4,935 nt of DNA from the IMG/VR virus record IMGVR_UViG_2519899565_000030, one strand, 5' to 3'. The first letter of the stretch is position 1, and every line of letters begins with the position of its first letter. The position numbers and the translations under genes were made by a program. This document shows positions 697-4,935 of the stretch, piece after piece. The notes below the pieces were generated by a model. That model saw only the letters and a program-made list of their open reading frames with translations, did no database searches and was not told where the DNA came from. Origin of the DNA: a virus. Its lineage: Duplodnaviria; Heunggongvirae; Uroviricota; Caudoviricetes.

Positions 697-2975
<2,279 letters not shown>

Positions 2976-2983
2976 GGGGGGGG
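2976..2983. repeat. Homopolymeric G8 tract between P1 and P2; a complementary C6 tract lies at 3018-3023
   Basis: Read directly from the sequence: GGGAAGGGGGGGG upstream of P2 and TCCCCCCGGG downstream of its +1. Confidence 0.9.
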
Positions 2984-3006
2984 ACTAAACTATCACTATA
3001 GGGGAG
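2984..3006 (+). promoter_or_regulatory. P2: phage-type (T7/T3-like) single-subunit RNAP promoter motif, predicted +1 at G3001
   Basis: ACTAAACTATCACTATA|GGGGAG. Positions -8 to +3 (TCACTATAGGG) are identical to the T7 consensus TAATACGACTCACTATAGGGAGA. Positions -12/-11 are A,C as in T3, not C,G as in T7. The 21-mer GACTAAACTATCACTATAGGG (2983-3003) recurs exactly at 3541-3561. Confidence 0.6.
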
Positions 3007-3208
3007 AGACCCTAAGTCCCCCCGGGCTTAATACAGCCACCGACCCACACATTCATTAAGTCTCAGGCTTCCGGTAGCGGACCGATTGGAAACCATCCGC
3101 AATAAGCCTAGTGTTAAATCACCTTGGCCTGAGACCATTCCCTTTAACGTAGCAATCTCTCTCCTTTGACAGGCGGAGAACATCAGACCGCAGCGGAAGT
3201 ATCCGTCT

Positions 3209-3559
3209 ATGCGACCATCGGTGTGCGAGATTGTGAAGAACCAAGACATCATTGCTGAGGTCTGCCATCCATTTGTGGACAGGCGGAAACTCAAAAAGGT
3301 TAGACCAGTGGTGTCTGAGGTTGGAGCTTTGAGCCTGACCAGCAGGCTTGAGGAGACCATGAGTTCATCTTGTTATGGATTGTGTTATCACAATTCCAAT
3401 AAGAAGAACTTTAAGTCCAGCCTCCAGTCCTGTCAGCCCGAAGTATACTACGGTCGCTATGATGTGGTTCTCCATACTTCGGGTCTAACTGGAAGTACTG
3501 AACACTTTCGCGTCAGGTTCTCCGAAGTTCATTCCTGTTTGACTAAACTATCACTATAG
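3209..3559 (+). CDS. Hypothetical small protein (116 aa), uncertain; lies between P2 and P3 and its stop codon TAG is the TAG of the P3 core
   Basis: ORF with a possible SD (GGAAG, 3195-3199) 9 nt before the ATG. No recognisable family and some rare Arg codons. An overlapping antisense ORF exists, so coding status is unproven. Confidence 0.25.
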   Translation: MRPSVCEIVKNQDIIAEVCHPFVDRRKLKKVRPVVSEVGALSLTSRLEETMSSSCYGLCYHNSNKKNFKSSLQSCQPEVYYGRYDVVLHTSGLTGSTEHFRVRFSEVHSCLTKLSL

Positions 3560-3564
3560 GGACC
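3542..3564 (+). promoter_or_regulatory. P3: second exact copy of the phage-type RNAP promoter motif, predicted +1 at G3559; about 306 nt upstream of the Rha-family gene
   Basis: ACTAAACTATCACTATA|GGGACC. Identical to P2 over 3541-3561. Correctly oriented to transcribe the Rha gene and the downstream small ORF. Confidence 0.6.
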
Positions 3565-3864
3565 ATATCTCGCCTCTGACCTCCTGAGAGACGGCAAGCG
3601 AGAAACCGTGGTCCACGCTAGCTTGCTAGCCACCAGCCTCTGGTCAGCCTTTGTGTTCTTTGGTCTCGTGACTTAAGTCTATCACCACACACGCTCGGAC
3701 ATGCTGTCGAACCTTCATCTCTATGGTCATCGCAGACCACTAACCCCAATTACCTCAAGTCATTCTGTTTGCGTCCTGTTGCCTGCTGGTCTCCCTTTAC
3801 GTGGGGGCTTGAGTAGGTCAGTGGGGGTGCGACTTCAGGGTGCAAACAAAAGGAGTACACGTAA

Positions 3865-4593
3865 ATGTCTCAACAAGAAATCAGCGTCATTAACCTCGAC
3901 CAGCTTGTCTCCATGACCTCAGTTGAAATTGCTGAGCTGACAGGCAAGGAGCACCGAAATGTCCTACGTGATATTCGCAATATGGCTGAGGAGCTTAACG
4001 CGCTCAAAACTGAGCAGTGCTCAAAACTGAGCAGTCATATCGGGGTGACTGAAGATGTCTATCTAAACGCGCAGGGGAAACAGCAGCCTCTGTACCGTCT
4101 CGACCGTAAGCATACTTTCATTCTGGTCGCTGGCTATTCCGTTCACCTCCGCGCCAAGTGTTACGACCATATTCAGACGTTAGAGCGTCGAGTCCTTCAA
4201 CTGGAAGACCAGAAGAAGCGAGCAGCCATTCAGTCCGCTAACCGCCGAGGCGTGACTTGGGGCGACTACTGCAAAACCTATGGTCTACCCGCTCAGAAGC
4301 TAATGACCGCACTTCTTCAGCATCGTGGTCTCTTTCGTAAGAACCCAATCAGTAACGAGTGGTCTGTAAATCCAAAGTATTCCGACTGCTTCCGTATCAT
4401 TAAGCCGTCAGACCAGAAGTTCTCAGCAGGTGGTTATAACTTTCGCTTCAACGCTAAGGGATTGGAGGTCTTCGGTAAGCCTGCGATAGTCGATAAACTG
4501 CGAGGCATCCTTATTGCCTTCACTGGCACCGACCAGCAGAAGCAAGAGCATCTCCTGAAGCAAGCCCAATCCGGCAAGCTGGAGGGACTCTAA
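3865..4593 (+). CDS. rha: Rha-family phage regulatory protein (N-terminal Phage_pRha-like domain) with a C-terminal domain of unknown function, 242 aa
   Basis: SD AGGAG (3851-3855) 9 nt before the ATG. N-terminal motifs MTSVEIAELTGKEHRNVLRDIRN ... YLNAQGKQQPLYRLDRKHTFILVAGYS match the Rha domain as I recall it from phage phi80 Rha (IAEAFGKRHDDVLKSIR ... YKNEQGRKQPMYTMTKDGFTFLVMGFTG). Confidence 0.88.
   Translation: MSQQEISVINLDQLVSMTSVEIAELTGKEHRNVLRDIRNMAEELNALKTEQCSKLSSHIGVTEDVYLNAQGKQQPLYRLDRKHTFILVAGYSVHLRAKCYDHIQTLERRVLQLEDQKKRAAIQSANRRGVTWGDYCKTYGLPAQKLMTALLQHRGLFRKNPISNEWSVNPKYSDCFRIIKPSDQKFSAGGYNFRFNAKGLEVFGKPAIVDKLRGILIAFTGTDQQKQEHLLKQAQSGKLEGL
4002..4035 (+). repeat. Perfect tandem direct repeat, 2 x 17 bp (GCTCAAAACTGAGCAGT), inside the Rha CDS
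   Basis: Read directly: 4002-4018 equals 4019-4035. The unit length is not a multiple of 3, so the two copies encode different amino acids (ALKTEQ / CSKLSS) in the variable linker of the Rha domain. Confidence 0.9.
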
Positions 4594-4594
4594 G

Positions 4595-4795
4595 ATGATT
4601 GACCCGCGCACACCTATTGGTCGTGCAACTCTCCGCTACCGTGGTCTGCCTACCCGTCACCTCCTGTCCCTGCTGAGACTTGGAGTCGATAACCCTGATC
4701 GCCCTTACTACAGTCGAGACGAGCTGATAGCGATGCTGGTCGACCGTGATTTGAATAATCAGTTACGTCGAGCCTTTGCGAAACTGGAGTCTTAA
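4595..4795 (+). CDS. Hypothetical small protein (66 aa), apparently translationally coupled to the Rha-family gene
   Basis: SD-like GGAGGGA (4579-4585) about 9 nt before the ATG. The ATG lies 1 nt after the upstream TAA stop. Arg-rich; no recognisable motif. Confidence 0.5.
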   Translation: MIDPRTPIGRATLRYRGLPTRHLLSLLRLGVDNPDRPYYSRDELIAMLVDRDLNNQLRRAFAKLES

Positions 4796-4802
4796 CATCT
4801 CC

Positions 4803-4812
4803 GGAAATTTCC
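4803..4812. promoter_or_regulatory. Perfect 10-bp palindrome GGAAATTTCC in the intergenic region after the 66-aa ORF; possible protein-binding site
   Basis: The sequence is self-complementary. It sits 8 nt after the stop codon and about 115 nt before the next start codon. No T-run follows, so it is not a typical intrinsic terminator. Confidence 0.25.
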
Positions 4813-4925
4813 AGACCTTAACCAACCTTATTTAAAACCTTTTGAGATGACCGATGCGGGGAGACCCGTAGGCATTACTGTGTCTGCGATACCGATAGTC
4901 TCAACTCTCAAGAGGAGTAATTACT

Positions 4926-4935
4926 ATGTCTAGCG
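4926..4935 (+). CDS. Probable 5' start of a further gene running off the window (ATG at 4926)
   Basis: SD AGGAG (4913-4917) 8 nt upstream of the ATG. Only 10 nt of coding sequence are visible. Confidence 0.35.

Follow-up and report, generated by a model that had tools for sequence, protein, structure and literature searches.

A perfect 17-nt tandem duplication in a Rha-family regulator gene and its natural one-, two- and three-copy alleles

Described slippage sites and the Rha repeat

The CTGG x3 hotspot of the Escherichia coli lacI gene, reportedly described by Farabaugh et al. in 1978, is regarded as the classic slipped-strand site. Contingency loci, simple sequence repeats that undergo phase variation in Haemophilus, Neisseria and Campylobacter, among others, have reportedly been studied by Moxon and colleagues; the classical ones carry many copies of units of 1–8 nucleotides (nt), switch at 1e-2 to 1e-5 per generation and are ON every three units. 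A third group of systems, reportedly studied by Ripley, Glickman, Sinden and Lovett, comprises deletion and duplication hotspots at palindromes or quasi-palindromes flanked by direct repeats, together with template-switch mutagenesis. We compare these systems here with a perfect 17-nt tandem duplication in a gene coding for a Rha-family (Phage_pRha) regulator. The gene lies in a stretch of 4935 nt (below, the window) of the Caudoviricetes record IMGVR_UViG_2519899565_000030, which corresponds to the left part of a small chromosomal island. In the interpretation that we consider likely, the duplication is obligatory for the reading frame, forms hairpins and slips recurrently into one-copy and three-copy loss-of-function alleles.

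Like the lacI hotspot, the Rha repeat is a perfect head-to-tail repeat in a regulator gene, and gain or loss of one unit recurs in both directions, each event inactivating the gene by frameshift. However, its unit has 17 nt instead of 4, is itself a hairpin and is present in only two copies. Moreover, whereas the lacI repeat is incidental to the frame, a functional Rha allele needs the duplication, and the two copies are read in different frames. The resemblance to contingency loci lies in the intragenic position, in a unit length that is not a multiple of three, in a copy number that sets the ON or OFF state, in copy-number polymorphism among isolates (one, two and three copies in E. coli, with products also in Shigella) and in the setting of a host–parasite conflict. 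In contrast to them, there is no long array of 1–8 nt units, only two 17-nt copies; there is no ON state at every third unit, the gene being ON at two copies only; and the slippage rate is probably much lower. As at the (quasi)palindrome hotspots, a short palindrome is central to many independent tandem duplications and deletions, and its arms change together as template switching predicts. Those hotspots were defined from laboratory spectra, whereas the Rha case is one of standing natural variation across a gene family, with periods of 17, 29, 33, 36, 39, 45 and 69 nt, the events falling in a coding loop that tolerates them. The literature that was searched includes work on RAZR/PD-T7-4, the anti-phage system discussed below; neither this Rha repeat nor any island carrying T7-type promoters was found in it.

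Anatomy of the repeat and its natural alleles

Positions 4002–4018 and 4019–4035 (+ strand) are identical copies of GCTCAAAACTGAGCAGT placed head to tail. Tandem Repeats Finder assigns to 4002–4035 a period of 17, 2.0 copies, 100% match and a score of 68. A repeat search returned the same coordinates, and the identity does not extend by even one base on either flank. The chance expectation for a perfect period-17 tandem duplication is about 3e-7 per window (4935 x 4^-17, our own arithmetic). The earlier note on this DNA had reported the duplication and considered it not to be expected by chance, and both statements are borne out. Each unit holds the palindrome GCTCA-aaac-TGAGC, which can form a hairpin of 5–6 base pairs (bp). 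The core of the first unit is GCTCAaaacTGAGC (4002–4015); in the second unit (core 4019–4032) a T–A pair lengthens the stem to 6 bp over 4018–4033. Folding of single-stranded DNA gives about −9.5 kcal/mol for the two adjacent hairpins, with z-scores of −2.3 and −3.0 for the two strands.

The Rha gene (3865–4593, + strand) codes for 242 amino acids (aa). Its assignment to the Rha family of regulators and antirepressors is based on the Pfam and PHROG profile matches. The PF09669 (Phage_pRha) profile matches aa 17–107 over profile positions 1–90 of 91 (E 3.5e-18; 66.4 bits, well above the gathering threshold of 29.9), and phrog_10324 ('anti-repressor Ant') matches the whole protein (E 2e-69). The Pfam match spans the repeat, which occupies the third base of codon 46 through codon 57, in agreement with the earlier observation that Rha motifs are in frame on both of its sides. 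In a search of a phage protein collection, the known phage-borne relatives differ in being less than 60% identical, most of them matching the N-terminal domain only; the loop module that bears the repeat was seen only in this chromosomal island family.

Alleles with zero to five units were built in silico and translated. The gene is full length (242 aa) only with exactly two units. Without any unit the product has 49 aa, and with one unit 56 aa (...ALKTEQSYRGD*). All alleles with three, four or five copies give a product of 60 aa (...CSKLSSAQN*) and stop at the same place, because a TGA sits in the third reading frame of the unit. The first unit is read in frame 0, as (A)LKTEQ, and the identical second unit in frame +2, as CSKLSS. 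Upstream, the conserved part HRNVLRDIRNMAEELNA (3952–4001, + strand) encodes the end of a helix (residues 30–46) and includes the element CTTAAC, which precedes every frame-0 core in the family. Downstream, the 'B-type' module HIGVTEDVYLNAQGKQQPLYRLDR (4036–4107, + strand), corresponding to a β-hairpin wing, is read in frame +2 relative to the core and needs a bridge of 2 mod 3. One extra 17-nt unit (17 = 2 mod 3) therefore joins the frame-0 upstream part to the +2-frame downstream module. Programmed ribosomal frameshifting was rejected, no slippery heptamer being visible in the unit.

The AlphaFold2 model built on the family alignment (mean predicted local distance difference test score, pLDDT, 75) has a helix at residues 30–46, a coil at 49–57 with pLDDT below 50, and strands at 61–67 and 73–79. 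The repeat is thus predicted to encode a disordered loop (residues 47–57) that separates the wing from the recognition helix in a winged-helix-like domain and that, on this model, can tolerate changes in length. A sequence search of PDB with the Rha protein found no relatives, and Foldseek comparison of the model with PDB gave no match at E <=0.001; the fold says nothing beyond 'winged-helix-like'. The ratio of non-synonymous to synonymous substitution rates (dN/dS) between the window gene and the alleles L003 and L002 is 0.07–0.32. The intact gene is under purifying selection, and the copy-number variants are therefore losses from a working gene.

Such variants exist in nature. A search of 5426 complete E. 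coli genomes found a close homologue in 144 and the full-length allele class in 122; synthetic one-copy and three-copy constructs were also used as queries against these genomes. Strain 7_12_30A matches the three-copy construct at 100%, and over the 4935 nt of the window its island (L019) shows no mismatch and a single gap, which is the extra unit. The one-copy state is found in strain 104 and in E166, for which two independent assemblies agree; as the islands of these strains hardly differ, a single event probably accounts for both. RefSeq labels the gene 'frameshifted' in all three strains. The OFF alleles amount to four of the 122 records (~3%), the remaining ~118 matching as two-copy. In the sample of full-length matches that was listed for the complete genomes, no allele other than the one-copy allele differs in length. 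The prediction of the earlier note that gain or loss of one unit would shift the frame is thus confirmed both in silico and by natural alleles; length heterogeneity, whose absence among homologues would by that note have spoken against an active slippage site, is clearly present, with one, two and three copies.

Exact sequences were also looked up among the roughly 15 billion proteins of a large collection. Alleles with at least three copies are represented by their 60-aa product in 743 contigs and the one-copy allele by its 56-aa product in 141 contigs, named as E. coli and Shigella flexneri; the two intact 242-aa proteins are present in at least 1000 contigs each. For recurrence, the open reading frames (ORFs) in the C-terminal frame that gene callers would report were computed for each state in the window background and in that of L003, which differ by ~4% in nucleotide sequence. 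The diagnostic ORF of the one-copy state was found in 32 contigs in the window background and in 10 in the L003 background; that of the state with at least three copies was found in nine and two contigs, respectively. A third background (P0127 with P0154) has a one-copy product as well. If no allele was carried from one background to another by recombination, the number of events is at least five, gains as well as losses. Two other short products were noticed: P0135 (54 aa, 32 contigs) diverges directly after ALK, inside the first core, and P0132 (58 aa) diverges inside the second unit; either may result from an insertion or a deletion.

On the evidence of these sequences the repeat appears to be a real, recurrently active slipped-strand hotspot that acts as a mutational ON/OFF site. 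It is a perfect adjacent direct repeat (2 x 17 nt, 100%), and variants with one unit more or less recur without other change, as seen in L019 and in the one-copy and at-least-three-copy products, each found in at least two backgrounds. We infer that the two identical adjacent units misalign during replication (slipped-strand mispairing). The looped-out 17-nt unit would fold into its own hairpin of 5–6 bp and stabilise the slipped intermediate on either strand, which would allow both contraction (from two copies to one) and expansion (from two to three). Contraction from three copies to two should be at least as easy, so that the three-copy OFF state would be reversible, whereas the step from one copy to two would need a new duplication and would be rare. 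The net effect would be a low-frequency heritable ON/OFF mutational site for the regulator of the island.

Several points weigh against this interpretation. From what is generally known of short tandem duplications, slippage between just two 17-nt copies should be far rarer than in classical microsatellite switches, and the contribution of the hairpin to slippage is one that we infer. Recombination could in principle have carried copy-number alleles between backgrounds, which would inflate the number of independent events. Much of the 743-contig count could come from one heavily sequenced clone. Because the intact counts are lower bounds, the value of ~30% for the OFF share in the protein collection is an upper limit.

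Family-wide duplications, the palindrome and alternative explanations

The history of the repeat was followed in its homologues. A homologue search gave 499 matches, of which 120 were inspected; DNA was obtained for 22 further alleles, and a scan of GTDB genomes with the family alignment gave five loci. The inspected homologues have 228–261 aa, and nearly all of the variation in length falls within this one loop. The palindromic-core module (for example GCTCAAAACTGAGC, GTCCAAATTTGGGC, GCCCCAATTCTGGGGG, CCCCAAAACTGGGG and GTCCAAAATTGGAC) is present once, twice or three times per allele; the 233-aa proteins L004, L005, L008 and L013 have a single core. Near-perfect tandem repeats were found with periods of 17 nt (window, L003, L002 and L023), 29 nt (L016, from Klebsiella), 33 nt (L015), 36 nt (L010 and L018), 39 nt (L017) and 45 nt (L014), and at the protein level P0158 (265 aa) has an in-frame 69-nt duplication that spans both cores.

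The modules downstream of the core are of two types. The core that precedes type A (LVGEEVYKDAKG...) is read in frame 0, and the one that precedes type B (HIGVTEDVYLNAQG...), the type of the window, in frame +2. Every type B allele requires a bridge of 2 mod 3, for which three solutions were seen: an extra 17-nt unit, an extra 29-nt unit and that of L010, a single core minus one A (AAAA to AAA). The L010 segment ALKLSSPIG and the window segment ALK[TEQCSK]LSSHIG differ by exactly 18 nt. The 29-nt repeat (L016:3088–3242, Klebsiella/Raoultella, P0090) lies in the same loop and has 26/26 identical nt at its period; its length is again 2 mod 3, and its copies are translated in two frames, as LKTEQPESR and SKLSSQNLG. 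It is a second, independent frame-bridging duplication, and it is probably equally slippage-prone. In L009 (3094–3207; Leclercia adecarboxylata NCTC13032) a 1-nt insertion just 5' of the core (GGCTGGAGGAGC versus GGCTGAGGAGC) frameshifts the Rha gene; this could be a real pseudogene or a sequencing error.

The period-17 two-core layout occurs with identical copies in the window and L003, with copies differing at 2/17 positions in L023 and at 7/17 in L022, and with more diverged copies in L006 and L007. The copies of L002 are near-identical, but built of another unit, CCCCAAAACTGGGGAGT. Alignment of homologous Rha genes, as the earlier note had advised for finding the ancestral copy number, thus places the two-core period-17 layout as ancestral to a clade, and the perfect identity of the copies in the window looks like a recent, slippage-prone state. 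That note had also suggested a recent slippage compensated elsewhere. As stated, this is not supported, since the diverged alleles L023, L006 and L022 have the same layout; the apparent compensation is the downstream module, permanently read in the +2 frame. Homogeneous copies are found in three sequence contexts (window/L003, L002 and L016), for which the simplest explanation is either conversion between adjacent copies or repeated rounds of loss followed by a new duplication that restores the frame. In our view, tandem duplication of a covarying palindrome has occurred many times, with different periods, in this segment across the family, and the repeat represents the state of the segment that is most prone to slippage.

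The conservation of the palindrome raises another possibility, that the core GCTCAAAACTGAGC is a protein-binding site (operator or iteron) or a functional RNA or DNA hairpin, the duplication supplying two sites that the coding sequence tolerates. Among 25 distinct cores, 89.6% of the stem cells are paired and 11 cells show double-sided changes. The covariation score is 0.285, against 0.184 in shuffles (0/500 reach the observed value); only 0–1 of 500 column shuffles reach the observed pairing or covariation, and controls with a slid partner column are 6–39% paired. The stem codons are rare ones that preserve pairing. In all frame-0 cores Lys is encoded by AAA (26% gene-wide) and Leu by CTC (24%), Pro is CCC in all the cases observed in cores (11%), and Gly is GGG in most (14%). 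The palindrome is, moreover, retained in both reading frames despite the different amino acids. Pairing and codon use argue for a cause at the level of the nucleic acid, not necessarily for a function. The core may also resemble the lambdoid origin iterons inside the O gene, and an embedded binding site or functional hairpin is possible.

The arrangement of the cores speaks against such an element. Dyad symmetry is kept by covariation, as in an operator or iteron, but the cores differ from one another within single alleles (L011, L022), their number varies from one to three, and their spacing ranges from 17 to 45 nt between alleles, unlike the architecture of an operator or an origin. Within the window no core was found beyond the two units with up to three mismatches, and this makes an operator set less likely. 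Pairs are broken in hybrid cores, which account for 10% of the cells. The short hairpins exceed shuffles in stability by only a narrow margin; RNA folding of the 161-nt repeat context gave no greater stability than shuffled sequences (z −1.1), and an Rfam scan of the whole window (E <=1) recovered only the tRNA-Gly at 489–559 and no known RNA family at the repeat. Template switching at quasi-palindromes gives matched changes in both arms without selection, and together with the copying of cores by duplication it can mimic a compensatory pattern, a mutational origin that the data allow; cores copied from each other are also not phylogenetically independent. We consider a cis-acting element unlikely. 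The more specific idea that Rha binds its own core, with co-variation of recognition helix and core, was dropped, the same helix variant occurring with different cores.

The earlier note had proposed a potential on/off contingency site. The frame-setting repeat and the natural one-, two- and three-copy alleles uphold part of this proposal, but there are only two copies and the gene is ON only at two. In its strict form, that of an adaptive phase-variation locus, selection would maintain the repeat for rapid reversible switching of Rha between ON (two copies) and OFF (one or three). The copy-number polymorphism in both directions and in several backgrounds agrees with this, as do the perfect or near-perfect repeats in three contexts (the unit shared by the window and L003, the other unit of L002 and the 29-nt unit of L016) and the diverged copies of other alleles, which fit cycles of deletion and frame-restoring re-duplication. 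L010, with its changes of −17 and −1 nt, shows a third route into frame, and the setting of the gene in an anti-phage island makes on/off variation plausible; one possible benefit would be to spare the cost or self-toxicity of a phage-triggered island when T7-like phage is absent. Against selection of this kind stand the low number of copies of a long unit, the absence of a periodic ON/OFF ladder (the TGA in the third frame) and the return from one copy to two, which needs a de novo duplication, with no microhomology visible at the unit boundaries. In addition, ~97% of the complete genomes are ON, and the dN/dS values are those of ordinary purifying selection. We therefore find an adaptive locus, like the cis-acting element, improbable without dismissing it. 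A one-off recent 17-nt slippage, compensated by a nearby indel and followed by no continuing instability, is far less probable still. It would explain the identity of the two copies, and the difference between L010 and the window (17 + 1 nt) shows that a 17-nt change plus a 1-nt change in the A run is a viable in-frame path. Yet the same layout is found in alleles that are 4–30% diverged and whose copies have themselves diverged, and the instability goes on, with one- and three-copy derivatives in several backgrounds. Assembly or sequencing artefacts have a negligible probability as the source of the variants or the repeat. Tandem repeats are open to mis-assembly, and several database entries are partial proteins that stop at contig ends inside or beside the repeat; but the two-copy state is identical in ~118 complete genomes, the one-copy state occurs in both E166 assemblies and in strain 104, and hundreds of independent contigs support each variant. 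By our own reasoning, the 34-nt periodic stretch has no repeated k-mer at k >=18, so that de Bruijn assemblers at usual k cannot inflate two copies to three. Recurrent hairpin-associated slippage of a frame-setting duplication remains our preferred explanation.

Island context and meaning of the repeat

The island lies at a tRNA-Gly gene (489–559) beside actS, and its integrase gene and then its DUF4145 gene are followed, after about 900 nt in which no gene was called, by the Rha gene and an ORF of 66 aa. The tyrosine integrase gene (697–2304, + strand) adjoins the tRNA gene. It contains a second small perfect tandem repeat, GGTGAGCA x2 (2044–2059, + strand; Tandem Repeats Finder score 32), which is short enough to have arisen by chance. 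The DUF4145 gene (2297–2956, + strand) overlaps the integrase gene by 8 nt and matches the PADLOC model of PD-T7-4 (E 1e-102). This system, now called RAZR, is an abortive-infection system that is based on a HEPN RNase and acts against T3 and T7. Its triggers are the T3, T7 and SECphi18 portal proteins and the SECphi27 protein Gp77 (PMC13017515); the overlap of RAZR homologues with the integrase stop has already been noted (PMC9519451). Only some of the related islands have the RAZR gene, which looks like cargo.

Three elements resembling T7-group phage promoters precede the Rha gene on the + strand. Two are copies of the GACTAAACTATCACTATAGGGGAG type, at 2983–3006 and at 3541–3564, the latter ~300 nt upstream of the Rha start codon; the third, a variant, is AATGAAACCCACACTATAGGGGAA (2952–2975). 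All three end in CACTATAGGG. Motifs of this type occur in the same place in 18/20 related loci, with one to four per island, and the 31 distinct motif contexts are all on the + strand, pointing at the Rha operon. They share the conserved −17 to +6 region ending in a CACTATAGGGAGA-like sequence and the single orientation of T7-group promoters. The T7 promoter consensus, TAATACGACTCACTATAGGGAGA, is present exactly in L010, L011, L014, L015 and L023. The 26 nt at 2982–3007 are matched exactly (26/26) in Salmonella phage ST38 (Kayfunavirus, Autographiviridae), in the intergenic region that separates the scaffold gene from the major capsid gene, a position equivalent to that of the φ10 late promoter of T7; this was the only match of the non-coding region in a DNA search of a phage collection. 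A scan of 2900–4935 for sigma-70 promoters and intrinsic terminators gave nothing above shuffle expectation and no + strand promoter. The Rha gene is probably the first gene transcribed when a T7-like phage RNA polymerase reads the island, and the motifs suggest that such small integrative islands form a family which the invading phage activates through its own RNA polymerase.

Other features of these islands were noted. Two identical 21-nt promoter-like copies bracket a 558-nt stretch (2983–3561) without an annotated gene in RefSeq relatives, in which a mechanically called ORF of 116 aa lies at 3209–3559; the stretch may correspond to a small gene or to a non-coding RNA transcribed by the phage polymerase. 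Downstream of Rha, the islands L011, L015, L016, L017 and L023 carry either a 163-aa and a ~329-aa hypothetical protein, or a DUF6971 protein (136–143 aa) and a protein of 373–379 aa. These genes have no match in PHROGs or PADLOC and are candidate effector genes of the islands. Just past the right end of the window, in the O26:H11 lineage, an IS66-family insertion sequence of the ISCro1 type (L019:5599–8214 and L025:6082–8697) sits between the pair formed by Rha and the 66-aa ORF and the next island genes, in both two-copy and three-copy strains; the genes beyond it may be disconnected from the operon by this insertion. A link between OFF alleles and insertion sequences was considered and dropped, the IS66 element next to the three-copy allele being also present in the two-copy O26:H11 reference strain 11368.

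A bolder hypothesis can be drawn from this context, although we think it quite unlikely, more so than an adaptive locus alone: the repeat would be a selected hairpin-assisted mutational switch, possibly a cis site as well, in a Rha-led operon that is silent until the polymerase of a T7-like phage fires the island promoters. If this is true, lineages turn a phage-triggered satellite or defence module off and back on through 17- and 29-nt duplications and 1-nt changes in the A run, and this would be a new contingency device (two copies, two frames, ON only at two) governing an undescribed class of islands activated by phage RNA polymerase.

Independently of that hypothesis, the repeat is a clean natural case of a duplication that is obligatory for the reading frame and yet is the weakest point of the gene, and the recurrent one- and three-copy alleles in E. 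coli and Shigella mark a live mutational site. For annotation it is relevant that this site accounts for hundreds of database entries for 'Rha family' fragments, with lengths of 56, 60, 182, 197 and 205 aa, and the repeat may serve as a typing marker for O26-type Shiga toxin-producing E. coli and related lineages. The covarying palindrome, with at least seven different tandem duplications, offers useful natural material for the study of quasi-palindrome mutagenesis and of duplications and deletions associated with hairpins. As the gene apparently leads an operon downstream of T7-group promoters in a RAZR island, the ON/OFF state of Rha may decide whether the phage-triggered module works.

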